Source: a virus
Taxonomy: Duplodnaviria; Heunggongvirae; Uroviricota; Caudoviricetes
Virus record (IMG/VR): IMGVR_UViG_3300021060_000024
Span: 11,577-75,576 of that record
Length of the DNA stretch: 64,000 nucleotides
Strand: one strand, 5' to 3'
Shown one piece after another: positions 3,387-55,942 of the stretch. How positions within the stretch are numbered: position 1 is the first letter of the stretch; every line of letters starts with the position of its first letter. The notes under the pieces are model-generated. The model was not told where the DNA came from. It saw only the letters and a program-made list of their open reading frames with translations, and did no database searches. A program made the position numbers and the translations under genes.

Positions 3387-3398
3387 CGGTCGCTCGGG

Positions 3399-4069: not shown

Positions 4070-4092
4070 GTCTTAGTCAACCCGGACATGAC

Positions 4093-4127
4093 GAGAGCCC
4101 CGGACCCTGAGGGTCTCCGGGGCTCTC
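4093..4127. terminator. GC-rich hairpin between the NlpC/P60 and HTH genes
   Basis: Perfect 12-bp inverted repeat GAGAGCCCCGGA ... TCCGGGGCTCTC with an 11-nt loop. Confidence 0.4.
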
Positions 4128-4163
4128 GCCAATCAGCCACCCACCACGGAGGCTGTCTGGATG

Positions 4164-4931
4164 CTACAGGACGCGACGGAACACGACCTCATCAGTCCAG
4201 AGCTTGCGCTCGCTGACCTCGCTGCCCGTGCGCGGCGCGTCGATGATCTTGCCGTTGCCGACGTAGATCGCGGCGTGGGCGTAGTCGTCGAAGAGCACCA
4301 GGTCGCCGGGGCGCGCCTCGGCGGCCGGGACCCGCGTGCCGAACGTGCGGAGCTGACCGGTGGTGCGCGGGGTGGCCACGCCCGCCGCCTTGCCGTAGAC
4401 GTACTGGATCAGGCCCGAGCAGTCGAAGCCGCGGCTCGGCGTCTCCTCGCCGTAGGCGTAGTCGATGCCGATCTGCTGGCGCGCCAGGGCGAGCACACCC
4501 TCAGCGCGCGAGGCCGCCGGGGCCGCCTGCTCGCGCTGGACGATGTCGCTGGCCTCCTCGGCCGGGGTTGCCACGGGCTGCGCGCGGCCGGGGATCACCA
4601 GGGTCTGGCCCGGGAAGATCAGCGTGCGTGCGCCCAGGCCGTTGGCCGCCAGCATGGCCGAGGTCGAGACCCCGGCGCGCCGCGCGAGCACGCTCACGGT
4701 GTCGCCCGAGCGCACGGTGACGGTGTCGCCGGTCAGGGCCGGCGAACTGGCCGGGCGCGGCGCGGCGCCCGCGGGCGCCTGGGCCATGGCCGGGGTGGCG
4801 AGCATGACCGGCACCACGGCGAGGGCGCCGGTGACGGCCGCGGCGCGGGCGATGTCGGTCTTGTGCAGGGCCAGGGTGTCGAGGACGGGCGTGGCGTCGG
4901 CCACGCGGTGACGGGCTGCGTTCCTGGTCAT
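4164..4931 (-). CDS. secreted LysM + NlpC/P60 peptidoglycan endopeptidase
   Basis: Signal peptide (AAAVTGALAVVPVMLATPAMAQA). LysM (TVTVRSGDTVSVLARRAGVSTSAMLAANGL). NlpC/P60 catalytic Cys (FDCSGLIQYVYG) plus downstream His. Start at the 29th codon of the track ORF, with AGGA upstream. Confidence 0.7.
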   Translation of the reverse strand: MTRNAARHRVADATPVLDTLALHKTDIARAAAVTGALAVVPVMLATPAMAQAPAGAAPRPASSPALTGDTVTVRSGDTVSVLARRAGVSTSAMLAANGLGARTLIFPGQTLVIPGRAQPVATPAEEASDIVQREQAAPAASRAEGVLALARQQIGIDYAYGEETPSRGFDCSGLIQYVYGKAAGVATPRTTGQLRTFGTRVPAAEARPGDLVLFDDYAHAAIYVGNGKIIDAPRTGSEVSERKLWTDEVVFRRVL

Positions 4932-5048
4932 GGTGGCGTCCTGGGTCGCGGGTGGCGTCCGGGGTGCCGGACCAGTCCATGGTGCGGTGTGGTGCGCGCA
5001 TCGGTGGTAGATCACCGGTCGTGCCCACCAGGATCACCCGCGTGGAGC

Positions 5049-5615
5049 ATGCTGTCCACCATGGCCTTCTCTGCGTCGACCGCGGCGCCCGACGACGTCC
5101 AGACGGCGCAGGGCTCCGGACACCTGCTGCACCACCAGCGGCTGCGTGCCGCAGTGCTGGAGCTGCGCAACGCGGGGCTCGCCCTGGAGGGCGACGTGCC
5201 CGAGCTCGCGCGCGATGCCGTCGCCGCGGCCATCCGGGCCACCGGTGGTGCCACGACCTCCAGCGACGACGCCGGTGACACGATCACGATCGACACCTCC
5301 GCGCTGGCCCGTCGCGGCCTGACGCAGAAGCCGATCACGGCCAACTACACCGTCATCGCAGCCGACCTGATCGACACCGTGCTGCACGTCACCGCCAACT
5401 CGGCCATCACGATCACCCTGCCGACGGGGCTGACCACGGAGATCGCGATCCCGTGGCGCCAGTTCGGCCAGGGTCAGGTGACCTTCGTGGCCGCCAGCGG
5501 TGGCTCGCTGCTGGCGCGCGGCGGGGCGAACAAGGCAGCCGGGCAGTACAGCGGGGGTGTGGTCACGGCGATCAACTCCACCGCCTGGCTGCTGGAGGGG
5601 GACATCACCTCGTGA
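5049..5615 (+). CDS. hypothetical protein (188 aa), translationally coupled to the GH6 gene
   Basis: Only the 3' end of track ORF 4161..5615 looks real (MLSTMAFSAS...GDITS). Its stop overlaps the next GTG (GTGA). Confidence 0.4.
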   Translation: MLSTMAFSASTAAPDDVQTAQGSGHLLHHQRLRAAVLELRNAGLALEGDVPELARDAVAAAIRATGGATTSSDDAGDTITIDTSALARRGLTQKPITANYTVIAADLIDTVLHVTANSAITITLPTGLTTEIAIPWRQFGQGQVTFVAASGGSLLARGGANKAAGQYSGGVVTAINSTAWLLEGDITS

Positions 5616-7822: not shown

Positions 7823-7900
7823 GTCATCCCACCCTCGCTGGGACTGATCGTTCACCACACTGGCGTCTGACCGAGAACCGCACCCGAGAGGAGCCCGGCC

Positions 7901-8905
7901 GTGCCCGAGCGCAGTACTACCTCGCAGACCGTCGCCATCGGCACCGAGGCGACCCCGGGCACCGCTGTCGCCGCGACGCGCCGCCTGGGTTCCATCGGCT
8001 TCCAGATGGGCGTCCAGACCGAGACGCAGAACCGCCGTCCCACCGGCCAGAAGTACGACTCCCTGGTCACCCTGGGTCAGGAGTGGACCGAGGCCGACAT
8101 CGAGGGTGCGCCGGTCTACCCGGAGCTGCCCTACATCTTCTCCTCGCTGATCAACGCCGCCACGGTCACGCAGATCATGGACGCGACCACGGCCACCGGC
8201 GCTTTCCGCTGGGTGTTCGAGTCCAACTCCTTCGGCGAGGACGCGCCCAAGACGTTCACCATCGAGCAGGGCTCCTCCTTCCGCGCCCACCGCGTGAGCA
8301 ACGGCATCATCACGGACTTCACCCTGGAGTTCGACCGCGAGGAGCTCTCCATCGAGGGCACCATGCTCGCCAAGGCCATCGAGGACGGCATCACGCTGAC
8401 CCCGGGCGCCACCATGCGCGACCAGGTGCCGGTGCTGCCCAAGGACGTGAGCGTCTTCCTGGACGCCACGGCCGCGGAGCTGGGCACCACCAAGCTCAAC
8501 CGCGCGCTGAGCGGCTCGATCGACATCGAGTCCCGCTACGCGCCGCTGTGGGTGGTGGACGCCTCTCAGCCCTCCTTCGTGACCACGCTGGAGAGCAACG
8601 AGGCCGAGCTCTCCTTCTCCATCCTGCAGATGGCCGACGCCCAGGCCATGGCCAACCTGACCGCCATGCGCGGTGGCCAGACGCGCTTCCTGCGCTTCCA
8701 GGCCCAGGGCCCGACGATCTACTCCGGCACCACGCCGATCCGCCACTCGTTCGTCATCGAGATGGCTGGCCAGGTGCAGGAGGTCGAGCAGTTCGACGAC
8801 GAGGACGGCGTCTACGCCATCGGCTGGACCTTCGGCGTGGTCCACGACCCGACGTGGAACAAGGCCTACCGCGTGGAGGTCGTCACCAACCACGGTCAGC
8901 TCTGA
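7901..8905 (+). CDS. major tail protein
   Basis: 334 aa. GAGAGGAG RBS then GTG. Followed by a strong hairpin, then the chaperone and tape measure genes. Confidence 0.5.
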   Translation: MPERSTTSQTVAIGTEATPGTAVAATRRLGSIGFQMGVQTETQNRRPTGQKYDSLVTLGQEWTEADIEGAPVYPELPYIFSSLINAATVTQIMDATTATGAFRWVFESNSFGEDAPKTFTIEQGSSFRAHRVSNGIITDFTLEFDREELSIEGTMLAKAIEDGITLTPGATMRDQVPVLPKDVSVFLDATAAELGTTKLNRALSGSIDIESRYAPLWVVDASQPSFVTTLESNEAELSFSILQMADAQAMANLTAMRGGQTRFLRFQAQGPTIYSGTTPIRHSFVIEMAGQVQEVEQFDDEDGVYAIGWTFGVVHDPTWNKAYRVEVVTNHGQL

Positions 8906-8914
8906 CCTGACCCG

Positions 8915-8951
8915 CAGCGCCCCAGCCGACTACTCCGCGGCTGGGGCGCTG
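8915..8951 (+). terminator. hairpin terminator after the major tail gene
   Basis: Perfect 14-bp stem CAGCGCCCCAGCCG / CGGCTGGGGCGCTG. Confidence 0.4.
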
Positions 8952-9042
8952 CTCTGTCTCGTAGCACAGCGTCACGGGCCGTGGCACACCGTGAGGCTAC
9001 GGTGTGGGCACCACGTCGGATCTCACCAAGGAGCCCCCACCC

Positions 9043-9399
9043 GTGAAGCTCTCCCAGGCCATCGCCAAGGCCCGCGACATCACCGTCCCCTTCGAGGGTG
9101 ACGACCTGCACGTCACCTACCGGCCGGCCTCGTTCACCATCCGCGAGCTCGACGCGCTGACCGAGGCGCAGAAGAAGGGCGACGGCAAGCCGACCCGTCA
9201 GCTCCTGGAGACCGTCAAGCGGGTCATCCTGGAGTGGGACCTCACCGATGAGGACGAGAAGGTCATCGCGCTCGACGCGAAGCTGGACGACGAGAAGGAC
9301 CCGCTGCGCGACGTCCCGTCGGTCGTGTTCACCGAGATCATGAAGAAGATCAACGAGGACCAGCAGCCGGGGGGGGACAAGACCTCCAGCGCGCGCTAG
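9043..9399 (+). CDS. tail assembly chaperone (G-like)
   Basis: AAGGAG then GTG at 9043. Acidic ~118-aa protein directly upstream of the tape measure gene. 3' end carries an 8-G run. Confidence 0.55.
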   Translation: MKLSQAIAKARDITVPFEGDDLHVTYRPASFTIRELDALTEAQKKGDGKPTRQLLETVKRVILEWDLTDEDEKVIALDAKLDDEKDPLRDVPSVVFTEIMKKINEDQQPGGDKTSSAR

Positions 9400-9593
9400 C
9401 CACTGGAGGTCAGGTCGGCGCGGTCCCGGAGTGGTACGAGACGCTCCAGGCCGCACGGTACATGAAGGTGCCCCCGTGGGAGTTGGCCGATCAGCCACTC
9501 TTCTGGCAGCGCGCGGCCCTTGCCGCCATGAAGGCTGAGAACGCCGCTCGCAACCGGAAGGACAAGCCCAGTGCCCACGGTCGCCGAGCTTGA
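9043..9593 (+). CDS. tail assembly chaperone GT product via -1 frameshift at G-run 9369-9376
   Basis: The -1 frame is open from the G-run to TGA at 9591-9593. It encodes ...WYETLQAARYMKVPPWELADQPLFWQRAALAAMKAENAARNRKDK. Confidence 0.45.
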
Positions 9594-12500
9594 GATCGAC
9601 CTCGACGCTCGTGACAACGCCACCGCTCAGCTCCTTGCCGTCAACCGGCTGCTGGAGCAGTTCGACGGTCGCGACGCGGACGCCAACCTCGGAGTCGACG
9701 GGGTGGGCCAGGTGCTCGCCGACATCCAGGCCGCCAACCAGGCCGCGCAGAGCTTCGCTGACCAGGATGTCCGCAAGGAGATCGAGGTCGAGAACGAGCG
9801 GGCCCTGCGCGCCCTGGAGCGCGTGCGCGCCGAGGCGGCGACGCTGGCCGACAACAAGATGCGGCTGGAGGTCGAGGTCGCCAACGCCAAGGCGCTGGCT
9901 GACCTGGCCGCCGTCGAGGCCGCCGCCGCGGCCCTGGCCGACCAGGTCAGCATGGACGTCGACATCGACGACGCCGCGGCCATGGCCAAGCTGGCCGGGC
10001 TGCAGCGCGCGGTCAACGCCATCGACGGCAACATCCGCGTGGACGCCGACACCTCCGCAGCGCGCGCGCAGATCGACGCCGTCATCGACTCGATCACGGA
10101 CCGCAAGGCCACCGTGAAGATGCTGGCCGACATCGCCGACGTCGAGCAGAAGGTGGCGCAGGTCGACGCGCTGACCTCGCGGCTGCGCGACCAGGTGGTG
10201 AGGTTCGACGGCGACGACGCGGGCGTGCGCGCCACGGTGGCTGCGGTCGAGGCCATGGTGCGTGACCTCAAGGCCAACGTGATCTTCGAGGGCGACACCA
10301 CCAACGTCGAGCAGGCCGTGGCGCTGGCCAACGGGCTGCTGCAGCAGTACGCCACCCAGCAGGCCGAGGCCAAGCTGGACGCCGACGCCGACGCCGCACG
10401 CGGGGCCATCGCCATGGCCATCGCTGACCTGCAGGCCTTCGACGGCCGAGTGGCCACTGCGCAGATCCGCGCTGACGTGGACGCTGCGGGCATCGCCCAG
10501 GCGCAGGCCCTGCTGGACTCCATCCCCAAGGAGGTCCGCAGCCGCATCACTGCCGACATCGGGGACCTGGTGGCTGGCGTCGCGGCGAGCAAGGCGGCGC
10601 TGGCCAGCCTGCCCGAAGAGATCAACATCCGCGTCGACACGCGCAACCTGTCCGACCTGGCCGACAAGGCGCGCTACGCCGGTGGCCAGATCGGCGTGCT
10701 CGGCATCGCCGTGTCCGGCCTGGGGGCGGCGCTGATCCCGCTGGGTGCGGTGGCTGTCGGCTCCGTCGGCGCGCTGGGCGCCGCCTTCACCGTCGCGGGC
10801 GGCGCGGCCACGGTCTTCGGCTTCGCGGCCGTCTCGGCCCTGGGTCCGGTGGCCGACGCCGTCGAGCAGATCCGTCAGGGCGAGCAGCAGTACAAGGAGG
10901 CCGTCACCGACCCGGCCAAGGAGGCCGCCCTCCTCAAGATCCAGATGGCCTACAACGCGCTCAGCACCGAGCAGCGCGCCGCGGTCGAGGGCGTGCTGGC
11001 CTACCAGAACGCCTGGCAGGGCCTGGTCACCAGCATCCAGCCGCAGATCTTCCAGGCCACGGCCACGGTGCTGCAGACGCTCACCAGCCTGTTCCAGCAG
11101 ATGAGTCCTGCGATCACCGGCGTGGCGAACGAGGTCGTCTCCCTGGCGAACAGCGCCGCGGCGGCTCTGGGCAACCCGGTCTGGCAGACCTTCATCAACA
11201 ACATGAACAACCTGGCCGGCCCCGTCTTCGGTGCGCTCGTGCGCGGCCTGGGCAACGTGGTCACCGGGATCATCGGCCTGGTCAACGCCTTCACCCCGAT
11301 GTCGGTCGGCTTCGTGCAGGGCTTCGAGCAGATGACGGCCGCCTTCGCGACCTGGTCGGCCGGGCTGGCCAACAACACCGGCTTCCAGAACTTCATCAAC
11401 TACATCCAGCAGAACATGCCGCGGGTGCGCGAGTTCATCGCTGACGCCGTGCAGGCCATCGTCGACTTCGTCCAGGCGACCGCACCGCTGGGCTCGACGG
11501 TGCTGGACGCGGTCAACCGGGTGCTGGAGGCGTTCAGTCGCCTGCAGGAGGTCAACCCTCAGCTCGCCGCCGTCGTGGCCTCGGTCGCGCTGCTGACCCC
11601 GGCAGTGCTGGGCGTCGCGGGCGCCGTGGCGCCGGTCATCTCCCTGTTCATCACCATGGCGGGCGCGGCCGGCGAGCTCGGCGGCGCGCTCGGCATCGCC
11701 GCGGGCGGCTTCACCGGCACGACCACCTCGGCCTCGGGCTTCGCCGGGGTCATGACCACGGTCGGCACCGCGGTGCGTACCGCGGGCGGGCTGCTGCAGT
11801 CGACGCTGGGCATCCTGACCCTGTTCGGTGGCGGCTTCATCACGGCCATCGCCGAGAGCCAGCGCTTCCGCGACACGATCGTGGACGGCTTCCAGTCGAT
11901 CGGCACGGCCTTCTCCGGCCTGGGCACGGCCTTCGCGGGCCTGTTCAGCGCGCTGGGCGAGATGGTCGGCGCCTTCAACGACGTGTCCGAGGCCGTGGTG
12001 ACCCTGGGCGGCTCCTGGGGTCAGTTCTTCGGGCCCATGGTCACCATCGCTGCGGAGTCGGCCTCGGCCGTGATCGAGATCCTCACCTCGATCGTGGAGG
12101 CCTTCTCCAACGTCTTCTCGGGCCTGGCCGCTGCGGCCAACCGGGACTGGCAGGGCGTGTGGGACGCGCTCAACGACGACGCGCCGCGCCAGGCCATCGA
12201 CCGCGCGCTGCAGAACGTCAAGAACGTGCTCAAGGCGCCCAGCCAGGACTACAGCGAGTACGGCAAGCGCTCGATGGACGAGGTCGGCCAGGGCTTCGAC
12301 GCGGGCGCAGGCCTGGTGGGCGGGCAGATGCCCAACCACGCCTCGATGCTCGCGCAGGCCTTCGGCTCCAACCTCACCGGCTTCGACACCGCGGGCCAGC
12401 AGGCCATGACCGCCGTCGGCACCGGCGCGGCCGCGGGCGTGCCCGGAGCCATCGCACCCTTCACCGGCCTGGGCACCCAGGCCAGCGGTGCTCTGACGGG

Positions 12501-15306
12501 CCTGGCGGCCATCGGCCAGCCCGCGGGTGCGCAGGCCATGGCCGGGGTCGGGGCGGGCGCGAGCCAGTCCGTGCCCCAGGCGCTGGCCCCCTTCGAGCAG
12601 CTCCAGCCCGGCATCCAGCAGGCCGTGGCCAACGTGGCCACCTCCACGCTGGCCGCGGGCACGGACGCCATGGGCAACTTCTCGGCCGGGGCGATCCAGA
12701 ACTTCACGGCCGCCATGGCCCCCTTCGAGCAGCTCCAGCCCGGCATCACCGCGGCCACGCTGAACGCGGCGCTGGCGGCGACTCCCGGTGGCCAGCGCGC
12801 CATGGCGGGCTTCGGCGAGGGCGCGCAGGCGAACATCGCCAGCGCCCTGACCCCCTTCCAGCAGCTCAACCCCCAGCTCGCCGCGGTCGTCATGGCCACG
12901 GTGGACTCCATCGCGCCCATGGGCGGGGCGACGATGGTCAGCTTCGGCGCCGAGGCGCAGGCCAACCTGGCCGCCGCGCTGGCGCCCTACGAGGCCATCG
13001 CCCCGGGGATCACCGCGGCGCTGACCAACGCGATCGTGGCCAACACTGAGCAGGGCCGCCTGGGCATGGAGGCCTACGGCCAGGGCGTGGCCTCGGGCGC
13101 GCCCGCGGTCACCGGTGCCGTGCAGCAGGTCACCACGCAGGCTCAGGCCGCGCTCGACGCGGGCAACGCCATGTACAACCCCTCGGGGGCCAAGGGCGCC
13201 GCAGAGTACAACGCGGGGCTGGCCTCGGGCGCGGCGGGTGCGGGGGCTGCAGCGGCGACCGTCACCACCGCGGTGCAGGGCGCCCTGGACTCCGGCTCGG
13301 CCATGTACAACCCCTCGGGCGCCAAGGGCGCCGCGGAGTACAATGCGGGCCTGACCACCGGTGGCGCCGGTGCCCACGCTGCGGCCATCTCGGTGACCGA
13401 CCAGGCGCGCATGGGCTTCATCGCTGGCGGCACCCTGACCGCTGAGGGCCTGGCCTCGGGCACGAGCTACGGCACCGGCATGACCGGCGCCAGTGGCGCA
13501 GTGAGTGCGGCGGCGGCGACGCTGCCCGCGGCGGCGCGCACCTCCTTCGGTGGCGGCGGCGACTTCACCCCTGAGGGTGCGCAGATCCCGACCAGCATGG
13601 CTGCGGGCATCAGCGCGGGCGTGGCCTCGGTGCAGGGCGCCATGATGCTGATCTCCAACGCCATCAGCGCGCAGATCGTGAACGCCCAGCTCCAGGGCAC
13701 CGACATGGGCACGCGCTTCTCGAACTCGCTGACCACGTCGCTGACGGGCGCGAGCACCGCAGTGCAGGGCTCGATGATGCTCATCACCAACGCCATGAGC
13801 GCCGGGGCGATCCAGGCCAGCACCGCTGGCACTGCGGTGGGGCAGAACTTCACCCAGGGCCTGACCACGAGCCTGACTGGCGCTGCCACCGCGGTGCAGG
13901 GCTCGATGATGATGATCACCAACGCGATGTCGGCTGGGGCGGTCCAGGCCTCGGTCGCGGGCACCGCGGTGGGTACCAACTTCACCCAGGGCCTGACCAC
14001 GAGCCTGACCGGCGCGGCCACCGCGGTGCAGGGCTCGATGATGATGGTGACCAACGCCATGAGTGCCGCGGCGGTTCCCGCCTCGGTCGCGGGCACGGCC
14101 ATCGGCACCAACTTCACCACCGGGCTCACCACGGGCCTGACGGCGGCCACGACCGCCACGACCACCGCCATGGCCTCGATCACCGCGGCCATGCAGACCG
14201 GCCTGGCTGGGGCGCAGGCGGCCGTGACGGCCGCCATGGCGGCGATGACGGCGGCCTTCACCACCGGCTTCACCGGCATGACCACCGCGGCCACCACGGC
14301 CATGGCGGCCATCGGCACGGCGATCACCGCGGGGCTGGCCACGGCGCAGGCGGCCGTGGCAGCGGCAGTCGCTGCCATGACGGCGGTCTTCACCACCGGC
14401 TTCGCGGCCATGCAGGCGGCGGTCACCGCGGCCATCACGGCCATCGGTGCCGCGATCACCGCAGGCATGGCGGCGGCCACCGCGGCTGTGACGGCGGCCG
14501 TGACGGCCATGCAGACCGCCTTCACCGCGGGCTTCACCGCGATCACCGCCGCGGTGACGCAGTCGATCACGGCGATCGTCCAGGCGATCACCCAGGGCAT
14601 GACCACCGCCCTGCAGGCCGTGACCACCAGCGTGCAGGCGATGGTGCAGGCCTTCACCAGCGGCTTCGCCCAGGCGCAGGCCGCGGTGCAGTCGGCCGTG
14701 GCGGGCATGGTGGCCGCGATCCAGTCGGGCATGAACCAGGCGCTCGCGGCGGTCAACAGCTTCGTGAACGCGGCCGTGGCGGCTCTGAACGGCATGGGCG
14801 CGCGCTTCCGGGCCGCGGGCGCGGCCGCAGGTGCAGACCTGGCCGCGGGCCTGCAGTCCCAGGTCGGTGCAGTCCAGGCCGCCTCGGCGGCGCTGGCGGC
14901 CGCGGCGGCCGCGCCGATGCCGGGCTCCCCGGCCAAGGTCGGGCCGCTGTCGGGCAACGGCTGGACGCGCATCCGTGGTGAGCACTTCGGTGAGGATCTG
15001 ACCGCGGGCCTGCTCTCCCAGGTGCGCGACGTGCGCGGGGCCTCGGGCGCGCTGGCCAGTGCGGCCAGCCGCGCGCTGGGCTCGGACATCGCTGGCGGCC
15101 TGTCGCTGTCGGGCTCGGGCTCGCTGGGCACGGCCAAGACGCTCTCGGGCTCGCTGTCGGGCAGCCGTGGTGGGATCACGATCAACGTGAGCGCCGACGC
15201 GGTCAAGGTGACCACGACCGGCGACGCCGCCAAGGCTGACTTCCGTGACGCGGGCAACGAGCTGGCGCACATCCTGAACGCCGCGCTCCGGCGCCGGACC
15301 TCGTGA
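9571..15306 (+). CDS. tape measure protein (1911 aa)
   Basis: Coiled-coil N-terminal region, transmembrane segments (GIAVSGLGAALIPLGAVAVGSVGALGAAF) and long Ala/Thr/Gly tandem repeats. Position after G/GT. Confidence 0.8.
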   Translation: MPTVAELEIDLDARDNATAQLLAVNRLLEQFDGRDADANLGVDGVGQVLADIQAANQAAQSFADQDVRKEIEVENERALRALERVRAEAATLADNKMRLEVEVANAKALADLAAVEAAAAALADQVSMDVDIDDAAAMAKLAGLQRAVNAIDGNIRVDADTSAARAQIDAVIDSITDRKATVKMLADIADVEQKVAQVDALTSRLRDQVVRFDGDDAGVRATVAAVEAMVRDLKANVIFEGDTTNVEQAVALANGLLQQYATQQAEAKLDADADAARGAIAMAIADLQAFDGRVATAQIRADVDAAGIAQAQALLDSIPKEVRSRITADIGDLVAGVAASKAALASLPEEINIRVDTRNLSDLADKARYAGGQIGVLGIAVSGLGAALIPLGAVAVGSVGALGAAFTVAGGAATVFGFAAVSALGPVADAVEQIRQGEQQYKEAVTDPAKEAALLKIQMAYNALSTEQRAAVEGVLAYQNAWQGLVTSIQPQIFQATATVLQTLTSLFQQMSPAITGVANEVVSLANSAAAALGNPVWQTFINNMNNLAGPVFGALVRGLGNVVTGIIGLVNAFTPMSVGFVQGFEQMTAAFATWSAGLANNTGFQNFINYIQQNMPRVREFIADAVQAIVDFVQATAPLGSTVLDAVNRVLEAFSRLQEVNPQLAAVVASVALLTPAVLGVAGAVAPVISLFITMAGAAGELGGALGIAAGGFTGTTTSASGFAGVMTTVGTAVRTAGGLLQSTLGILTLFGGGFITAIAESQRFRDTIVDGFQSIGTAFSGLGTAFAGLFSALGEMVGAFNDVSEAVVTLGGSWGQFFGPMVTIAAESASAVIEILTSIVEAFSNVFSGLAAAANRDWQGVWDALNDDAPRQAIDRALQNVKNVLKAPSQDYSEYGKRSMDEVGQGFDAGAGLVGGQMPNHASMLAQAFGSNLTGFDTAGQQAMTAVGTGAAAGVPGAIAPFTGLGTQASGALTGLAAIGQPAGAQAMAGVGAGASQSVPQALAPFEQLQPGIQQAVANVATSTLAAGTDAMGNFSAGAIQNFTAAMAPFEQLQPGITAATLNAALAATPGGQRAMAGFGEGAQANIASALTPFQQLNPQLAAVVMATVDSIAPMGGATMVSFGAEAQANLAAALAPYEAIAPGITAALTNAIVANTEQGRLGMEAYGQGVASGAPAVTGAVQQVTTQAQAALDAGNAMYNPSGAKGAAEYNAGLASGAAGAGAAAATVTTAVQGALDSGSAMYNPSGAKGAAEYNAGLTTGGAGAHAAAISVTDQARMGFIAGGTLTAEGLASGTSYGTGMTGASGAVSAAAATLPAAARTSFGGGGDFTPEGAQIPTSMAAGISAGVASVQGAMMLISNAISAQIVNAQLQGTDMGTRFSNSLTTSLTGASTAVQGSMMLITNAMSAGAIQASTAGTAVGQNFTQGLTTSLTGAATAVQGSMMMITNAMSAGAVQASVAGTAVGTNFTQGLTTSLTGAATAVQGSMMMVTNAMSAAAVPASVAGTAIGTNFTTGLTTGLTAATTATTTAMASITAAMQTGLAGAQAAVTAAMAAMTAAFTTGFTGMTTAATTAMAAIGTAITAGLATAQAAVAAAVAAMTAVFTTGFAAMQAAVTAAITAIGAAITAGMAAATAAVTAAVTAMQTAFTAGFTAITAAVTQSITAIVQAITQGMTTALQAVTTSVQAMVQAFTSGFAQAQAAVQSAVAGMVAAIQSGMNQALAAVNSFVNAAVAALNGMGARFRAAGAAAGADLAAGLQSQVGAVQAASAALAAAAAAPMPGSPAKVGPLSGNGWTRIRGEHFGEDLTAGLLSQVRDVRGASGALASAASRALGSDIAGGLSLSGSGSLGTAKTLSGSLSGSRGGITINVSADAVKVTTTGDAAKADFRDAGNELAHILNAALRRRTS
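13720..14115 (+). repeat. three tandem ~132-nt coding repeats inside the tape measure gene
   Basis: Repeated peptide LTTSLTGA(A/S)TAVQGSMM(L/M)(I/V)TNAMSAGA(V/I)QAS(V/T)AGTAVG(T/Q)NFTQG. A looser AAMTAAFTTGF... array follows to about 14700. Confidence 0.5.
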
Positions 15307-35374: not shown

Positions 35375-35565
35375 GCACGAAGTACCGCATGGAGGCGCGC
35401 CGCCCCGAGGTGCCGGACTTCCTGCTCACGCTGCGCATGGACTCCTGGGATGCGAGCCTGGACGCCGAGCACGAGCGGGCAATCGGCGCCATGGCCACCG
35501 GGCTGCAGCACGCCGGCTACACCACCGAGGTGACCGTCGAGACGACCACCGCGAGGCCGCTGTGA
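35371..35565 (+). CDS. hypothetical protein (64 aa)
   Basis: GTGA overlap. Confidence 0.3.
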   Translation: MSTKYRMEARRPEVPDFLLTLRMDSWDASLDAEHERAIGAMATGLQHAGYTTEVTVETTTARPL

Positions 35566-35756
35566 GCACCGCGCTGCTGACCCCGGCCGAGGTCGCCGAG
35601 CGCTTCGGCGTCAACGTCAAGACCATCACGCGCTGGGCCGACGCCGGCCTGCTGACCTGTCAGCGCACCCTCGGCGGTCACCGCCGCTTCTCGGCCGAGC
35701 AGGTCGAGCGCATGATCGCTGCCCAGAACACCACCCCGGAGGACCACGATGACTGA
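35562..35756 (+). CDS. excisionase/MerR-like HTH_17 DNA-binding protein
   Basis: LLTPAEVAERFGVNVKTITRWADAGLLTCQRTLGGHRRF. Confidence 0.5.
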   Translation: MSTALLTPAEVAERFGVNVKTITRWADAGLLTCQRTLGGHRRFSAEQVERMIAAQNTTPEDHDD

Positions 35757-42800: not shown

Positions 42801-43309
42801 CAGCCCTCCTCGCCCTCGTGCAGCCACTTGGCCAGGGCCAGCACGTCGCGGGTCTCCGCAATGCCGCCGAGCAGGTCAGTGGCCCGCTCCCAGGAGCGCT
42901 CGCGCCCCGTGACTTCCGGGGTCGGCGGCTCGACGTCGGCCGGCTTCGGGTGGACGATCCCGATCGTGTCACCCGGGCGCAGCGTGTGCTTGCGCAGGGC
43001 GCCGTCGGGGCTGAGGATCTCGACCTCGACATAGGTGAGGCTGGCGCCGATCAGGCGCACCTTGGTCTCATTCGTGCTCACGGGCTTCTCCTCGATGTAG
43101 GGCTCCAGCTGGCTGGGGCGGATGTAGAACCGGCGCCCCAGGTTGTCCTTGCACAGCCACCAGTGCGCGGTGATGTCAGCCCCCTCGGGAGCCGTGGAGC
43201 CGTTGACGATGGTCAGCACGTCGCCCACCATCAGCGACAACTGAACGCCGCGGTCGTCGGTCAGCCGCACCCGGTCGTCGGTGCGGAAGATGTGCCAGGG
43301 GCTGACCAT
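42800..43309 (-). CDS. hypothetical protein (169 aa)
   Basis: Track ORF, ATGA-coupled on both sides. Confidence 0.4.
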   Translation of the reverse strand: MVSPWHIFRTDDRVRLTDDRGVQLSLMVGDVLTIVNGSTAPEGADITAHWWLCKDNLGRRFYIRPSQLEPYIEEKPVSTNETKVRLIGASLTYVEVEILSPDGALRKHTLRPGDTIGIVHPKPADVEPPTPEVTGRERSWERATDLLGGIAETRDVLALAKWLHEGEEG

Positions 43310-44172
43310 CAGGACGGGGCGCCCGGGTTGACGTTCAGCGCGGTGCCCTGCGGGACGGGGATCACGGTGACCTTGCCGTCCTTGATCGCCTGGTAGGTGT
43401 TGTAGCCGTCAGGGCCCAGCACCTCCACGAGCTGGCGGATGGAGTCCAGCTCGGACTGCACCTGCACGTTGCGCTGCTGCTGGGCCGTGTTCTGCTCGAT
43501 GGCCACCTGGGTCTGCTGCAGCGCGTTCGCGAGCTCGTCGGGCAGCGTGGGCGTCGACAGCGACACGGCGAAGCCCGTGAAGTAGTCCCCGCCGGCGAGC
43601 TGGTTCACGTAGCCGGGCAGGAGCTCGTTGACCCGGCCCTCGATGTCCTTGCGGACCTTGGCGTCGGCGTAGATGGTCTTCCAGTCCACGCCCTGGGCGG
43701 CCTCGGTCAGGCTGCGCTGCAGCGGGCCGCGCAGGTAGGTCTCCATGAAGCCGGACCAGTTCTGCAGACCGTCCTTGCCGGCGCCGTACTTGCGCCCGAT
43801 GTTCTCGTGGAAGGCGCGCAGCACGTCGCAGTCGGTGTTCAGCTCGAAGGTCAGCGTGCCGACCTGGGCGAGCTGGACCTGGGTGTTGGCGCCCTGCTCC
43901 CCCGAGCCCGCGGCGATGAGCGCGAGCGCCCCGCCGTCCTGCTTCTCGCCGGTGCCGAAGTCGTAGGTGCGCTGGCCGGCGGGGTACTTGTAGTGGTCGT
44001 CCCCAGGCCCGTCCCAGGAGCGCTGGCCGGGGTCGATGCAGTGGTCGAAGCTGACGTTGGAGATCACGCCGTTCTCGTACTGCAGGCCCACCTCATCCAC
44101 GTCGGTGCTCATCTGGCTGCAGCCCGCCAGGGCCAGCACGGCCAGGGGCGCCAGGAGGGTCATCTTCTTCAC
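43309..44172 (-). CDS. lipoprotein with SPFH/band-7-like domain
   Basis: Lipobox LAVLALAGC after VKKM. GAGAGGA RBS. C-terminal ...IEQNTAQQQRNVQVQSELDSIRQLVEVLGPDGYNTYQAIKDGKVTVIPVP resembles SPFH C-termini. Confidence 0.4.
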   Translation of the reverse strand: MKKMTLLAPLAVLALAGCSQMSTDVDEVGLQYENGVISNVSFDHCIDPGQRSWDGPGDDHYKYPAGQRTYDFGTGEKQDGGALALIAAGSGEQGANTQVQLAQVGTLTFELNTDCDVLRAFHENIGRKYGAGKDGLQNWSGFMETYLRGPLQRSLTEAAQGVDWKTIYADAKVRKDIEGRVNELLPGYVNQLAGGDYFTGFAVSLSTPTLPDELANALQQTQVAIEQNTAQQQRNVQVQSELDSIRQLVEVLGPDGYNTYQAIKDGKVTVIPVPQGTALNVNPGAPS

Positions 44173-44378
44173 GGGGCACTCGTCCTCTCGATGGTGATCT
44201 TGAACTTGGTCTGGTGCTGGTCGCCCAGCCCGGTCAGCGTCATGTCGACGTTGGCGACGTTGGCCCCACGGGTGCGCATCACGGCGCTGGCGAAGACGCA
44301 CAGCTCGTCGTCGTACTCCCCGTCCGCCGAGGCCACGAAGTGCTCCGCAGCCTCGGCAGCCGTGATGGGGATGGTCAC
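44169..44378 (-). CDS. hypothetical protein (69 aa)
   Basis: GTGA-coupled to the lipoprotein gene. Confidence 0.3.
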   Translation of the reverse strand: MTIPITAAEAAEHFVASADGEYDDELCVFASAVMRTRGANVANVDMTLTGLGDQHQTKFKITIERTSAP

Positions 44379-44755
44379 GCCTCAGTCGGAGAGAGCTCGT
44401 CGGCGGCCGCCCGCAGGGTGGCGACCACCTGCTCCTTGGTGCGCCGGTGGGCGTCGTTGTACCGAGCGAAGCCCAGCTGGTTGAGGTTGTGGCTGACCAC
44501 GAACCTCTCCAGCACCCGCTGAGCCTCGGCATAGGCCTCGGCGGCGGCGTTCTGCTCGGCCTCGGAGCGCTTGTCCGGAGCCGAGGGGCCGACGTAGAGC
44601 TTGGTGACCACGGCCACCGCGCCCAGACCGCAGCAGGGCAGCTTCTCCACCGGAACGTCCAGGTCGTCGTACTCGATCGGGAACATCTGGCCCTGGATCC
44701 AGCCCACCTGCTCGATGTGGTCAGCCGCCTCGCGCAGCACCTGCTCGGTGTTCAC
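44375..44755 (-). CDS. AADH-PCC paralog family member P2
   Basis: VLREAADHIEQVGWIQGQMF...LPCCGLGAVAVV...ARYNDAH...LRAAADEL. Confidence 0.45.
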   Translation of the reverse strand: MNTEQVLREAADHIEQVGWIQGQMFPIEYDDLDVPVEKLPCCGLGAVAVVTKLYVGPSAPDKRSEAEQNAAAEAYAEAQRVLERFVVSHNLNQLGFARYNDAHRRTKEQVVATLRAAADELSPTEA

Positions 44756-45159
44756 GATCCGAGCCTGTTCGCGGCCGCGCGCATCGCGGCGGCGACGTCG
44801 GCCGCCGTGGTGTCTGCGCTGTCGGACCACCGCGGCACGGTGAAGTTGCCCCCCGACTTCTCGTCCACCACCGCGGCCAGGGCATCAACGGCCGCGGTGT
44901 CGAGAGCGGCCGTCGCGTCAGCCTCCTGGCCACCCTCGAACGTGACGGTGGCGTAGATGCTCATCCAGCCGCTCGGGTTGTGCGGGTCCTCGATGAAGTA
45001 GCCGGAGCTGACCGCGATGGCCCCCAGTGCGCAGCAGGAACGTGCGGCCAGGGGCTTGCTGCCGCCCCTCTCGAAGAAGCTCCCCTTGTACAGACCCACG
45101 GTCTCGATGTGGTCGGCGGCCTCGGTGAGAACCTGTGCCGGCGTCTTGGTCTCGCTCAT
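44752..45159 (-). CDS. AADH-PCC paralog family member P3
   Basis: VLTEAADHIETVGLYKGSFF...SCCALGAIAVS...VPRWSDSAD...MRAAANRL. Confidence 0.45.
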   Translation of the reverse strand: MSETKTPAQVLTEAADHIETVGLYKGSFFERGGSKPLAARSCCALGAIAVSSGYFIEDPHNPSGWMSIYATVTFEGGQEADATAALDTAAVDALAAVVDEKSGGNFTVPRWSDSADTTAADVAAAMRAAANRLGS

Positions 45160-45503
45160 GCTGCAGCCTCCTCGGCCTTGAGGCGGTCGGCGGTGGCGCG
45201 CATCCGCCGCAGCACCACCTCCTGGGTGATCTGGGGGTCGTCGTTCCAGGCCACGATGCGGTCGTGGGCGTAGCGCTCGCCGTAGCCCAGGTCGCGCGCA
45301 ACCGCGGCGAGGGCGTCACGCGAGGCGGACTCGCCCACGAAGAGGCTGACCCGGGGCGTCACGACGCGGATGGCGCCGACGACGCAGCAGGGGCGCTGGC
45401 TGTCGGGAGCCTCCACCCCCGAGCGGTAGTAGTGCCCGTCCTGGTTCAGCCCCACGGTCTCGATGTGGTCGGCCGCGGCGCGCAGCACCTGCTCGGCGTT
45501 CAC
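45156..45503 (-). CDS. AADH-PCC paralog family member P4
   Basis: VLRAAADHIETVGLNQDGHYY...PCCVVGAIRVV...VAWNDDPQ...MRATADRL. Confidence 0.45.
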   Translation of the reverse strand: MNAEQVLRAAADHIETVGLNQDGHYYRSGVEAPDSQRPCCVVGAIRVVTPRVSLFVGESASRDALAAVARDLGYGERYAHDRIVAWNDDPQITQEVVLRRMRATADRLKAEEAAA

Positions 45504-46306
45504 GCGTTCACCGGCTCGGTCAGGGCGGCCACGGCGGCCTCGATGGCCATGACGGCGTCGACCTCGGTGGTGTCCTCGCTGGGGACGTCGGCCGGGTCGG
45601 GGCCCTCCAGGCCCAGCAGCGCCTCGGGGACCTGCGTCAGGGCCGCGAGGGCCTTGATCTCCTTGCCCACCATCGCCAGGGCCTCGCCCATCGACTTCAT
45701 GGCCTCGGTGGCCGCCTCGCTCGTCGGCGTCCAGGTCGCCTGGCTCTTGAGGATGCTCACCTCGGCCTCGGTCAGGATCGAGTGGCGCTTGGGGCGCTGG
45801 CCCATGCGCTTGTGGGTGGCCCGCTGGCGCAGCCCGGCCATGCCCCAGCGCTCCACGGCCTCAGCCGCGCCCTGGAAGGCCCCGACGACGGTCTCGACCG
45901 TGACGGCCCCGTGGTCGTTCCATACCGGCACCGCCTGGTCGGTGTTGAGCTCGACCTCCAGGTAGTAGCGCAGCGCGAGCGCGGCCTCGCTGTAGATGTG
46001 GCGGGGGTCGTCCTCGGGCAGGTGTCCCCAGCCGTGCACGCCCGCGCCCTCGGCACCGAGGAGCAGGTCCTGCACGCCCGCGGCGATGCCGATGGCGCCC
46101 AGCGCACATGCCGGGGCGTGCTCGTAGTCCAGGTACTGCTCGACCTTGACGGTCTGCTCAGCGGCGCCGGGGCCATAGAGGTCGATGGGGCCGGGCACCA
46201 CGCGCTGCTTGACGGCGGGGCGGTAGAAGGCCCCGCGGGTCCAGCCGTGGGTCTGGATGTGCTCGGCCGCGCCGCGCAGCACGCCCGGGATGGTCAGAGT
46301 CGACAT
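45500..46306 (-). CDS. AADH-PCC paralog family member P5 (longer, C-terminal extension)
   Basis: VLRGAAEHIQTHGWTRGAFY...PACALGAIGIA...VPVWNDHG. Start at codon 117 of the track ORF. Confidence 0.45.
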   Translation of the reverse strand: MSTLTIPGVLRGAAEHIQTHGWTRGAFYRPAVKQRVVPGPIDLYGPGAAEQTVKVEQYLDYEHAPACALGAIGIAAGVQDLLLGAEGAGVHGWGHLPEDDPRHIYSEAALALRYYLEVELNTDQAVPVWNDHGAVTVETVVGAFQGAAEAVERWGMAGLRQRATHKRMGQRPKRHSILTEAEVSILKSQATWTPTSEAATEAMKSMGEALAMVGKEIKALAALTQVPEALLGLEGPDPADVPSEDTTEVDAVMAIEAAVAALTEPVNA

Positions 46307-53063: not shown

Positions 53064-53519
53064 TTAGTCCTCCAGGGTTGCGTTGGGGTTGCGCCGGCGC
53101 AGCCCGCCGAGGCGGTACTGACCGGCGCGGTGGGCGTCGAAGGTGTCCAGGGTGTCCCACTGGGTGCGGAACGGGCGCTCGGGGTGGGCCTGGTTGTAGG
53201 CCTTGACCAGCGCCAGGGGCAGCGTGCCACGGTCGGGCACATCCACCGGGGAGACCCGCCGCGCCCAGGCGCGCACCTCGGCGGCGCTGGCCCGGTCGGG
53301 CTTGACCTCGACGGGCTGGCGCGAGGTCTGGGTGTGGCCGGCCCAGCGGCCGGGGCCACCCTTGAGTCGTGGGACGGGTGTGGCGTAGGGCCGGCCGGGG
53401 TGGGCCCGGTTGTAGGCCTCGACGTAGACGTCGGCCAGGCGGCCGCGCGAGGTGACGGCGTCGGGCTCGATGTCGCGCAGCCAGGCGCGGACCTCAGCCA
53501 TGGTGGCGTACTCGCTCAT
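53064..53519 (-). CDS. protein with two tandem Lsr2-like C-terminal DNA-binding domains
   Basis: AEVRAWLRDIEPDAVTSRGRLADVYVEAYNRAHPGRP and AEVRAWARRVSPVDVPDRGTLPLALVKAYNQAHPERP, compared with Lsr2 [30 protein letters not shown]. Confidence 0.55.
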   Translation of the reverse strand: MSEYATMAEVRAWLRDIEPDAVTSRGRLADVYVEAYNRAHPGRPYATPVPRLKGGPGRWAGHTQTSRQPVEVKPDRASAAEVRAWARRVSPVDVPDRGTLPLALVKAYNQAHPERPFRTQWDTLDTFDAHRAGQYRLGGLRRRNPNATLED

Positions 53520-53521
53520 GG

Positions 53522-53944
53522 TCAGTAGCCGAACTGCAGCACGCGAATGGTCTCGGACTCCTCGGTGGTGGACATGACCGAGGCGATGAGCGCGATGGCC
53601 CAGGCGAACCGGCGGTAGGGGTCGGTGCGCTGGTCGGCCTTGAGCGCGTCCAGCAGTGCGCGGGCGGGGACGGCGGTGAGCCGGGCGCCGTACTTGTCCT
53701 CGGTCAGTACCTGCTGCGAGGCGCCCTCGGGGTCGAACATGGTCATGTCGCTGGGCACCTCGGTGCTGGTCTGGTAGAAGCGCTCGCCGGCGGCGCGGGC
53801 CTGGGCCAGCAGTGCACCGGTGGCGGTCTCGCGGCCGGCGTTGGCCAGGTCGATGGTGGCCAGTGTGCGGCAGTCGACCAGCGGGCCGTCCTGCATGTAC
53901 TCGGGGTACTCGCGGACGATGAACAGACGGGTGTCGTAGGACAT
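53522..53944 (-). CDS. hypothetical protein (140 aa)
   Basis: Track ORF. First gene downstream of cassette E2. Confidence 0.4.
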   Translation of the reverse strand: MSYDTRLFIVREYPEYMQDGPLVDCRTLATIDLANAGRETATGALLAQARAAGERFYQTSTEVPSDMTMFDPEGASQQVLTEDKYGARLTAVPARALLDALKADQRTDPYRRFAWAIALIASVMSTTEESETIRVLQFGY

Positions 53945-53987: not shown

Positions 53988-54044
53988 AACGTTACGGGGT
54001 GGTGCGGGGCGGGTCAAGCCCCAGCTCTGTGACCTGCGTCACAC
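53988..54044 (-). promoter_or_regulatory. promoter/operator cassette E2
   Basis: Minus strand: GTGTGACGCAGGTCACAG ... TTGACC - 17 bp - TAACGT - TCTACCCATCA ... ACCACCACC ... GGAG - ATG. Confidence 0.55.
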
Positions 54045-54080
54045 CCGCCGGGGGCCGTGCTGGCCCCCGGCGGGCGGCGC

Positions 54081-55310
54081 TCACATGATGGCGTGGAGGA
54101 TGGCGGCCGCCATGAGCGGCGGTACGGCGTTGCCCACCTGCTGCTGCTGGGACGTCTTGCTGCCCTGCCAGGGGTAGTCGCGGTCGAAGGACTGCAGCAC
54201 GCCAGCCTCGGCCTGGGTCACGCGGACCGAGCCGGGGGTCTTCTGGCGCGGGGGGTCGCCAGCCTTGCGGTAGCCGGGCGCCGCGATGACGTCGCCCGCG
54301 AACGTGCCGACCACGGTCGGGGAGGTGTCGCCCTCGACGGCAGCCACGGGCTGCCAGCGCGTGCCGGTGGCGAGCGTGTCGCGCGGGTCGATGTCGCCCG
54401 ACTCCTGCCAGGTCACCGCGTTGCCGCGACCACCGAAATGGATCGTAGGGGCAGGAGTGGACTCGTGACGCACGGCCGTGTTGGCCTGGTTGCCGTTGTA
54501 GAACCACTGCCCGCGCGTGACCTTGCTGGTGACGGCAGCAGCGGGCTGCTCGGCGGTGCGCACGCCACGGGCGGCGGGGTCGCCGCCGGTGCCGTAGTTG
54601 GACCGGATGGCCTCGCCGTGGTGGGCGTCGAGCGCGTCGGCCATGGAGACCCACGAGGGCACGCCCTCGTCGCGGCGCTGGGGGTCGCGGGGGTAGTAGG
54701 CGCTGTGGGTGGGCTCAGGCAGGGACACCTCGCGCACCCGGGAGGCCACCAGCACGGCGCGGCGGCGAGTCTGCGGCACGCCGTACTGCTCGGACTTGAG
54801 CACGCCCGTGGCCACGCTGTAGCCCCACTCGCGCAGGTGCTCGGCGTAGGCCTCCCACACGGGCAGGACGGCGGGCACCTGCTCCAGCGCGACCCACTGG
54901 GGGCGCTGGTCGCGGATGACGGTCAGCGGGTGCAGGACCAGGACCGACCGGTCGTCGAGCGTGGCATCGGCCACGATCTCCACGGCCTGCTCGGGGCTGT
55001 AGCCGCAGCCGACCAGGTCGACAGCGTCGAGCAGGTGGCCCAGCGCAGCGCGACCGGCGCCCTTGCCAGCGGCCGTGAACGTCTGGCACGGCGGACTAGA
55101 GATGTAACCGACGTGGGCAATCAGATTGACCAGGCGCACGTCCCCGCGGATGCGCTGGTGACCAGCGGCCACGGCCGTGGCGCACGCGTTGGCGTCCCAC
55201 TCCACGCCCATGACACGGGCGGGGTCGACGCCGAGCAGGCGCAGCCCCTCGTCCCAGCCGCCGGGGCCGGCGAAGTCGTCGCGGATGTCGATGATCGTGG
55301 GGGTGGACAT
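54081..55310 (-). CDS. DNA (cytosine-5)-methyltransferase (orphan)
   Basis: Motif I FAGPGGW, motif IV SPPCQTFTAAGK, motif VI-like LEQVPAV, motif VIII QTRRRAVLVAS. Start MSTPTIIDI (the longer N-terminus in the track is promoter read-through). Confidence 0.8.
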   Translation of the reverse strand: MSTPTIIDIRDDFAGPGGWDEGLRLLGVDPARVMGVEWDANACATAVAAGHQRIRGDVRLVNLIAHVGYISSPPCQTFTAAGKGAGRAALGHLLDAVDLVGCGYSPEQAVEIVADATLDDRSVLVLHPLTVIRDQRPQWVALEQVPAVLPVWEAYAEHLREWGYSVATGVLKSEQYGVPQTRRRAVLVASRVREVSLPEPTHSAYYPRDPQRRDEGVPSWVSMADALDAHHGEAIRSNYGTGGDPAARGVRTAEQPAAAVTSKVTRGQWFYNGNQANTAVRHESTPAPTIHFGGRGNAVTWQESGDIDPRDTLATGTRWQPVAAVEGDTSPTVVGTFAGDVIAAPGYRKAGDPPRQKTPGSVRVTQAEAGVLQSFDRDYPWQGSKTSQQQQVGNAVPPLMAAAILHAIM

Positions 55311-55341
55311 GGTCGGTGCCTCCGTGGTGGGTGGTGCCGGG

Positions 55342-55409
55342 CTGATGGGTAGAACGTTACGGGGTGGCGGGGGGCCGGTCAACCCCTGGCAGCGTGACGT
55401 GCGTCACAC
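55342..55409 (-). promoter_or_regulatory. promoter/operator cassette E3
   Basis: GTGTGACGCACGTCAC palindrome, TTGACC, 17 bp, TAACGT. Confidence 0.55.
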
Positions 55410-55438: not shown

Positions 55439-55942
55439 CTAGAAGCACGCCGAGCAGGTGCAGTGGCGGCGCTTGCCGGACTGGCAGCGGGGGGAGGGGT
55501 CGTGCGGGGGCAGCACCCCGTCGCGGCAGGACTGGCAGGGCTCGGACTCGCGCAGCAGCGCAGCCAGGCGCTCGACGTGGTTGCGCTGGTCGTCGGCGCG
55601 GGAGCGCAGCGTGGTGGCCAGGGCCACGGAGGATGCGTCGCGCATCTTGCGCAGGATGGTGCCGAGGTAGGCGCGCTCGCCCGCCAGGAGATCGGTGAGC
55701 CCGTCGCGGTCCAGCACCAGCAGCGTGGTGTCGTCGCTACCCACGTGCAGCACGACCGGCACACCGTCCAGCGTGGTGCCGTGGTGGGTGCCGACGGGGA
55801 GCATGCGGCCGGGGGTGGCGCGGGCAGTGCTGGCCAGCCCGTCGTGCAGCGGCATGCCGAACGTGTCGGCCGGGTCGGTGATCGTGACGTGCTGGTCGGA
55901 CAGGACGTGACCCAGGCGGGTGATGGTCTCGGACATGATCAT
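55439..55942 (-). CDS. hypothetical protein with Cys-rich C-terminus (167 aa)
   Basis: Starts MIMSE (ATGATCATG). C-terminal CQSCRDG...RCQSGKRRHCTCSAC. Confidence 0.4.
   Translation of the reverse strand: MIMSETITRLGHVLSDQHVTITDPADTFGMPLHDGLASTARATPGRMLPVGTHHGTTLDGVPVVLHVGSDDTTLLVLDRDGLTDLLAGERAYLGTILRKMRDASSVALATTLRSRADDQRNHVERLAALLRESEPCQSCRDGVLPPHDPSPRCQSGKRRHCTCSACF

Follow-up and report, generated by a model that had tools for sequence, protein, structure and literature searches.

A gene at positions 54081..55310 (minus strand) of the window, that is, of the whole stretch of 64,000 nucleotides (nt) analysed here, encodes a homologue of C5-cytosine DNA methyltransferases in which the catalytic motifs are all preserved. 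The source of this DNA is an uncultured, high-GC actinobacterial siphophage, known from a metagenome contig alone. The protein probably acts as an active solitary C5-methyltransferase, which would mark replicating phage DNA and shield the progeny from host restriction. The methyltransferase is a moderately divergent addition to a very large, well-known class, and a small deletion is its sole departure from that class.

Identity as a C5-methyltransferase

The open reading frame (ORF) begins with an ATG at 55310, ends with a stop codon at 54081-54083 and yields a product of 409 amino acids (aa), which is also the length in the ENA gene call for the source contig. The coordinates given in a preliminary description of this DNA are therefore borne out. 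A longer form of 433 aa, contained in a mechanical ORF list, would start with a TTG at 55382, and it was rejected because this TTG is that of the -35-like hexamer TTGACC. The third-position GC content of the gene (0.91) matches that of the other genes in the window, whose overall GC content is 70-71%.

The protein is recognized by several family models. These include Pfam DNA_methylase (PF00145; E=2.8e-27, 96.4 bits against a cutoff of 22), PHROG 116 'DNA methyltransferase' (1.1e-48), PHROG 363, which bears the same name, and the Type II methyltransferase models of PADLOC (up to 7.5e-44, for MTase_II). With the NCBIfam model TIGR00675 'dcm', it reaches 83.7 bits, which is under the cutoff of 100.65. 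Consequently, the label 'Dcm-type' used in the preliminary description holds at the level of the C5-methyltransferase superfamily but not for dcm proper, since the score lies under the cutoff and the Pfam scans gave no match to Vsr. Escherichia coli Dcm (CCWGG) belongs to the same superfamily and is likewise solitary in E. coli K-12; in contrast to the Dcm-Vsr system, nothing about the window protein points to CCWGG specificity.

The catalytic motifs were located in the protein, and their conservation was judged on alignments of 24 and 101 homologues. Motif I, which binds S-adenosylmethionine, reads FAGPGGW (aa 13-19), with F13, G17, G18 and W19 conserved in at least 90% of the 101 homologues. 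Motif IV, PPCQ (aa 73-76, with PCQ at 74-76), contains the catalytic cysteine C75, which is invariant in the 101 sequences. Motif VI, whose glutamate contacts the target cytosine, is EQV (aa 143-145) instead of the usual ENV. Because neither E143 nor Q144 varies within the subfamily, the replacement of asparagine by glutamine is a subfamily trait and no lesion. In motif VIII, QTRRR (aa 180-184), R182 and R184 are invariant in both alignments. A variable recognition region of ~150 aa (aa ~200-360) is followed, in the expected linear order, by motif IX, RVTQAEAGVLQSF (aa ~363-375), and by motif X, GNAVPP (aa 393-398, within QVGNAVPP at aa 391-398), in which G393, A395 and P397 are invariant. Every motif named earlier (FAGPGGW, PCQ, EQV and QTRRR) was thus recovered, and GNAVPP was found besides.

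Structure prediction points to the same class. An AlphaFold2 (AF2) model based on the 101-sequence alignment has a mean predicted local distance difference test (pLDDT) score of 80.8, with values above 90 in the catalytic domain and low-confidence values of 35-65 in the recognition region (aa ~230-350). The matches listed by Foldseek against the PDB are C5 DNA methyltransferases (DNMT1, plant MET1, M.HaeIII and M.HhaI), with a probability of 1.00 and E-values of ~1e-12 to 1e-13. By sequence alone, the solved relatives are remote (best E ~1e-7; identity <=18%). The predicted fold is that of a class-I methyltransferase with the small domain of C5-methyltransferases, the small/recognition domain being modelled with low confidence. 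M.HhaI, M.HaeIII and the catalytic domain of DNMT1 have the same fold as the window protein and the same succession of motifs I-X. They differ from it in that identity is ~14-18%, motif VI is ENV rather than EQV, and its ~150-aa recognition region is unrelated to theirs. A further difference is that the prototypes M.HhaI and M.HaeIII have cognate nucleases and DNMT1 has regulatory domains.

Solitary status and distribution of the family

The genome in the window is that of a phage, with genes for a large terminase, an SPP1-type portal, tail and baseplate domains and an amidase lysin, as well as a primase-polymerase/D5 helicase, a YqaJ exonuclease and WhiB. The large terminase is ~50% identical (<=51%) to those of Streptomyces, Gordonia and Arthrobacter phages. 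Among the ~80 proteins of the window, the PADLOC models of Type II restriction enzymes gave 0 matches, and the nucleases detected by Pfam are just two HNH_3 proteins and an endonuclease VII, all away from the methyltransferase. As for a C-protein, the sole C-protein-like helix-turn-helix (HTH) protein (3683-4069, E=1.5e-4) lies 50 kb from the gene. The arrangement of a Type II restriction-modification system, with a restriction endonuclease gene adjoining the methyltransferase, was not detected in the window.

The two flanking genes deserve separate consideration. The upstream neighbour (55439-55936 (-)) encodes 165 aa with a cysteine-rich C-terminus (CQSC...CQSGKRRHCTCSAC) and matches itself alone among 5.8 billion proteins. 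The downstream neighbour (53522-53944 (-)) encodes 140 aa and appeared as a singleton in a word-indexed search, while a full HMMER search returned 78 distant relatives. These relatives define a family of ~125-aa phage proteins with invariant N-terminal M-(G/S)-Y, D-L, D-x-Y-G and Y-R-R-F elements and a C-terminal G-(H/Y). Against Pfam, the family gave a single marginal Imm33-like match (1/35 members, E=0.0041), and its profile matched nothing in the PDB. In four other genomic contexts, its members are surrounded by small phage genes, and a methyltransferase is absent from the vicinity. The single-sequence AF2 model of the 140-aa protein has a pLDDT of 47.8, which is unusable for judging a nuclease fold. 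The claim that no restriction enzyme adjoins the gene is thus supported as far as sequence tools reach, with 0 Type II models matched and with neighbours that are a singleton and a member of a family unlinked to methyltransferases. The methyltransferase appears to be without a detectable or conserved restriction-enzyme partner, and the folds of both flanking proteins leave this short of proof.

The methyltransferase family is large: the protein collection contains >5,800 homologues. Apart from the protein itself, the best match is 60-65% identical, and the closest ones are all metagenomic. No near-identical DNA was found in known phages, and no relative with the exact protein was found in IMG/VR. 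There are at least 541 relatives on IMG/VR viral contigs and at least 583 in genomes, nearly all of the latter from Actinomycetota (including Streptomyces, Kribbella, Solirubrobacterales, Microbacterium, Leucobacter and Arthrobacter). In a neighbourhood survey of 166 loci, 80 of them viral, every ORF located up to 2.5 kb from the gene was included in a clustering. None of the neighbour families is present in more than 10 of the viral loci, and the commonest ones, HNH (10), SSB (9) and DnaB (6), are replication-module genes. Three metagenomic contexts of relatives differ from one another, and one close relative is located 3.5 kb from an ArdA anti-restriction gene. A conserved neighbourhood was found for the ~53 chromosomal copies in Streptomyces (L020-L086; ~35% identical). 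Because these copies are syntenic with a TraG/VirD4-type coupling protein, they point to a widespread integrative conjugative element that carries a solitary C5-methyltransferase. Since the family occurs on phages and conjugative elements with changing neighbours, it appears to travel on elements entering new hosts and never with a fixed partner, which would be the signature of a self-protection methyltransferase.

Promoter cassette and transcription unit

The gene is packaged as a single unit. The 24-nt core of a promoter-like cassette, GATGGGTAGAACGTTACGGGGTGG, occurs in 7 copies within 3 mismatches (5 of them exact), with 0 expected; the copies lie between 52288 and 58053 and share a single orientation. 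Upstream of the methyltransferase, the core reads CCACCCCGTAACGTTCTACCCATC on the coding strand (55344..55367 (-)); it contributes 19 contiguous invariant columns to the 7-copy alignment and holds the putative -10 hexamer TAACGT (55359-55354 (-)), which fits TAnnnT. The putative -35 hexamer TTGACC (55377..55382 (-)) is located 17 nt upstream of TAACGT, and across the cassettes this hexamer is TTGACC/TTGCAC in 4 copies and TGGACA in 3. Just upstream of it, the operator-like palindrome GTGTGACGCACGTCACGC (core GTGACG-CA-CGTCAC; 55392..55409 (-)) may be bound by a protein. In the other cassettes, the palindrome is GTGTGAC-GCAG-GTCACAC, and the columns TGTGA..G.A.GTCAC are invariant in 7/7 copies. 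A gap of 33 nt separates the core from the ATG, and within it a ribosome-binding site GGAGG (55319..55323 (-)) lies 20 nt past the core and 8 nt upstream of the ATG. The aligned cassettes have in common the palindrome, the -35-like hexamer, the core, the start codon and, in most copies, the ribosome-binding site in the form CACGGAGG.

The promoter assignment rests on a relaxed TTGACN-17-TAnnnT pattern because a scan of the cassette region with a strict sigma-70 consensus gave 0 matches. This relaxed pattern is typical of actinobacterial housekeeping promoters. No gene for an RNA polymerase or a sigma factor was seen in the Pfam scans of the window proteins, and the cassette looks as if it could be read by host RNA polymerase with its primary sigma factor.

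At the other end, 7 nt past the stop codon, the unit is closed by a strong terminator-like GC hairpin (54044..54074 (-)) with a 13-bp perfect stem, a 5-nt loop and no U tract. Its predicted RNA folding energy is -44.1 kcal/mol (z = -4.7 against shuffled sequences). The next cassette follows directly and heads the gene of the 140-aa protein and an Lsr2-like gene. Because no comparable hairpin was found between the methyltransferase and the upstream unit, read-through from that unit into the methyltransferase may be possible. The description of the gene as one unit of a cassette regulon is therefore structurally correct: it has a cassette at its 5' end and a hairpin at its 3' end, it is one of 7 adjacent units, and the Lsr2-like gene belongs to the next one. 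The units may be co-regulated, and their expression may be early. The locus is a clean example of a gene packaged as a single promoter-to-terminator unit.

Several further observations concern the cassette and its surroundings. The palindrome AACGTT occurs exactly 7 times in the window (1.9 expected), at 52297, 53988, 55353, 56271, 57124, 57594 and 58039, and all of these sites lie within the -10 regions of cassettes. A search of IMG/VR with an 18-mer of the cassette gave a single isolated match, on a 14-kb contig without further copies, which is compatible with chance. The Lsr2-like protein (53064-53525 (-)) has a C-terminal DNA-binding domain that matches, with E=5.3e-07, the C-terminal tail (535-571/587) of one of the PADLOC models for Type II methyltransferases. 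An Lsr2-type DNA-binding tail thus seems to be present in some methyltransferases, and here the two functions would be encoded by separate genes in adjacent units.

A different repeated promoter was observed in contig L006 (jgi 3300064751 Ga0591239_000001, 77.7 kb), which belongs to an unrelated phage and encodes a 54%-identical methyltransferase at 6001-7227. In its first part (1-13227), a repeat of the form CTTGACAGAC...GTGCATACTGGTCACACACACC, also given as CTTGACAGACACGAGACCAGCGTGCATACTGGTCACACACACC...GACAGGAG, occurs in 11 copies in 13 kb and heads nearly every small gene, including the methyltransferase. Repeated-promoter packaging is consequently not unique to the phage in the window, and arrays of single-gene units, each with a promoter of its own, may recur among actinophages.

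Deletion in the recognition region

The recognition region differs from that of all other full-length relatives in one respect, which is absent from the preliminary description. In ~95 full-length homologues, the segment GDTSW-x-x-x-RPSPTIVGS precedes and includes the conserved SPT(I/V)VG element, and its W and RP are near-invariant. The window protein reads GDTSPTVVG at this segment, so that 7 residues (W-x-x-x-R-P-S) are gone, and it is the sole full-length sequence of this kind. The deletion is in frame and is located at 54320-54345 (-) of the window, which corresponds to aa ~325-335 of the protein. Judging from motif order and by comparison with M.HhaI, the deleted segment presumably occupies the position of the DNA-recognition loop preceding the 'TL' element. 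Because the deletion is in frame and the rest of the protein is intact, it would be a reason for caution regarding activity and specificity and no evidence of a pseudogene.

Apart from the missing 7 aa, the target-recognition domain is represented by a region of ~150 aa that is poorly modelled. It holds 2-3 'P-x-x-T-(I/V)' units, compared with 1 to 4 in the homologues of the 24-sequence alignment. Two routes to the target site were tried. The structural one was abandoned because the recognition region is of low confidence and the solved relatives are <=18% identical. The other, based on k-mer statistics, yields only a list of avoided and non-avoided palindromes with no link to the enzyme. As a natural variant, the deletion could inform how this methyltransferase subfamily reads DNA.

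Restriction pressure on the genome

Palindrome counts over the whole window were compared with maximal-order Markov expectations. Several 6-bp palindromes are strongly avoided: CTCGAG (0 observed, 35 expected), ATCGAT (0 and 16), GGATCC (1 and 8.7), CACGTG (4 and 20), GTGCAC (3 and 16) and CAGCTG (6 and 20), as well as GCCGGC (53 and 95). The count of GGWCC amounts to 0.61 of expectation. The sites GGCC, GCGC, CGCG and CCGCGG are abundant and show no depletion. Because of the strong avoidance of several 6-bp palindromes, the phage lineage appears to be under restriction pressure. A division of labour, in which rare 6-mers are avoided and unavoidable short GC-rich sites are masked by methylation, is plausible but unproven.

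Proposed function and alternative explanations

In the proposed mechanism, the methyltransferase would be expressed from its own cassette (operator-like palindrome, TTGACC, 17-nt spacer and TAACGT). As an S-adenosylmethionine-dependent enzyme, it would flip a cytosine out of a short recognition sequence. Cys75 of the PC motif would then attack C6 of the base, and the methyl group would be transferred to C5 with the participation of the motifs that contain Glu143 and Arg182/Arg184. This would mark phage DNA as it replicates, and the progeny would be protected from those host restriction enzymes, of Type II or a similar kind, that cut at sites overlapping the methylated motif. Orphan methyltransferases on phages and plasmids serve as anti-restriction devices (PMC12707154; PMC8256090). 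The gene had been put forward earlier as an anti-restriction candidate; this stands as the best available interpretation, being the standard one for methyltransferases of mobile elements and fitting the avoidance of restriction sites.

Some points weigh against this reading. The 7-residue deletion could alter the activity or the specificity of the enzyme, and the low pLDDT of the recognition region prevents prediction of a target site. The promoter class and the timing of expression are unproven given the failed strict sigma-70 scan. More generally, activity and methylation are deduced from sequence, for a phage seen only as a metagenome contig. Moreover, methylation-dependent nucleases of Streptomyces, such as ScoMcrA, cut Dcm-methylated DNA (PMC3009677). 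The modified base, 5-methylcytosine (5mC), can therefore be a liability: because it can attract nucleases of this type, which are common in Streptomyces, the benefit of methylation would depend on the host.

Among the alternatives, it is unlikely that the gene is a crippled or decaying copy, in which the deletion abolishes or strongly weakens methylation and the protein is either non-functional or kept for another purpose, for example DNA binding. This explanation draws on the uniqueness of the loss among the ~95 full-length homologues, on the near-invariance of the residues concerned and on the low confidence of the model around the deletion. However, the 409-aa frame is open, the deletion does not shift it, and the third-position GC is like that of the neighbours. 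All catalytic and cofactor motifs are intact, the promoter, ribosome-binding site and terminator are retained, and the recognition regions of the family tolerate large length variation (1 to 4 'PAPT(I/V)T' modules). It is similarly improbable that the enzyme is active but mainly regulatory, its marks on phage or host DNA serving to reprogram the host or to set the timing of gene expression, replication or packaging. Bacterial orphan methyltransferases are often regulators (PMC8256090), an Lsr2-like nucleoid-associated protein among the cassette units suggests manipulation of host or phage chromatin, and the cassette contains CG-bearing palindromes, both in the -10 regions (AACGTT) and in the operator (GACG/CGTC). 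Nothing ties the specificity of the enzyme to these sites, however, and a family that moves among phages and conjugative elements and keeps changing its neighbours is more in keeping with a portable gene for self-protection than with a built-in regulator.

The chances are slim that the gene is half of a restriction-modification or addiction module whose nuclease is the 165-aa or the 140-aa neighbour. Restriction enzymes evolve fast and are often without family matches, both neighbours are without Pfam, PHROG, PADLOC or NCBIfam annotation, and an FDP...EDK stretch of the 140-aa protein superficially resembles a PD-(D/E)xK motif. Nevertheless, 'EDK' is invariant at the D alone within the family of the 140-aa protein and lacks conservation of the K, this family never stands beside a methyltransferase in the four contexts, and the 165-aa protein has no relative at all. 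Each of the genes has its own promoter cassette, and the 80 viral relatives have no recurrent neighbour resembling a Type II restriction enzyme, HNH, SSB and DnaB being the commonest. Even less probable is a role of 5mC as the first step of cytosine hypermodification, a pathway that continues through 5-hydroxymethylcytosine to glycosylated bases and occurs in phages with TET enzymes. In phages, C5-methyltransferases that supply TET dioxygenases with their substrate are known (PMC8256090), but Pfam scans of the ~80 window proteins gave no match to a TET/JBP dioxygenase, another 2-oxoglutarate-dependent dioxygenase or a glycosyltransferase, which also sets the window apart from clusters of TET-coupled C5-methyltransferases. 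The part of the contig that extends beyond the window (11.6 kb) sits between portal and tail genes and is hence structural.

A speculative and very improbable variant is that the target lies inside the cassette itself, in the AACGTT of the -10 regions or in the GACG/CGTC arms of the operator. Progressive methylation of the phage DNA after replication would then switch the seven-unit regulon off or on, and the deletion would have retargeted the enzyme. If this were true, the methyltransferase would be a phage-encoded epigenetic timer, besides or instead of a means of restriction evasion.

With solitary self-protection as the preferred reading, the importance of the gene beyond annotation is low, as it is one more solitary C5-methyltransferase in a very large family of phages and conjugative elements. 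The target site, if determined, would reveal which host restriction systems this uncultured actinophage lineage has faced. A comparison of the target with the avoided sites (CTCGAG, ATCGAT, GGATCC, CACGTG and GCCGGC) would show how methylation and avoidance share the work.

Comparison with known systems

Solitary bacteriophage DNA methyltransferases, reportedly reviewed by Murphy et al. 2013 (AEM 79:7547, cited in PMC6893835), resemble the enzyme described here in being phage-encoded, in having no cognate nuclease, in their location among early or replication genes and in their presumed role in the self-protection of exported DNA. The window methyltransferase differs from them in its dedicated promoter cassette and terminator and in its unique 7-aa deletion in the recognition region.

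The 'DNA methylase' genes of several isolated actinophages belong to the same family, at 37-49% identity; for several of them, the match spans 98-100% of the length. They occur in the Rhodococcus phages ChewyVIII (gp75) and ReqiPine5 (gp74), the Arthrobacter phages Hum25 and Vibaki, and the Streptomyces Woodruffvirus phages BayC (gp40) and TP1604. Like the window gene, they are located in replication modules and have no annotated restriction enzyme. The backbone of these phages differs from that of the window phage, as seen in the large terminase and in the lack of a DNA match, and the Streptomyces phage copies have a recognition region that is ~100 aa shorter (74-76% coverage). To our knowledge, no actinophage 'DNA methylase' relative has a determined specificity. 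The multispecific C5-methyltransferases of the Bacillus phages SPR, phi3T and rho11s contain several independent recognition modules within one long variable region, and the 2-3 'P-x-x-T-(I/V)' units of the window protein may or may not be separate modules of this kind.

Further observations in the window

The window fits ENA contig k141_661892 (assembly ERZ27250785; 75,580 bp) only when it is reverse-complemented and read as a circle (record = 101812 - window). No terminal duplication was seen at the putative contig-end junction (window 26231/26232).

The PADLOC model 'mad1', which belongs to the MADS defence system, is matched (1.8e-15) by a 64-aa excisionase-like protein with MerR/HTH_17 similarity that is encoded at 35562-35756 (+). 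The match was judged irrelevant as an indication of a methylation-associated defence gene, the HTH_17 protein being 18 kb off and the similarity probably reflecting shared HTH ancestry. Four consecutive paralogous genes, all with DUF6197, are located at 44375-46306 (-) and are followed by a Band_7/SPFH protein at 43309-44532 (-). Adjoining the structural genes, a 789-aa protein (5453-7822 (+)) contains a glycosyl hydrolase family 6 (cellulase-type) domain, and an NlpC/P60 and LysM protein (4164-5015 (-)) is encoded on the opposite strand. As phage enzymes of lysis or associated with the tail, these two are unusual.

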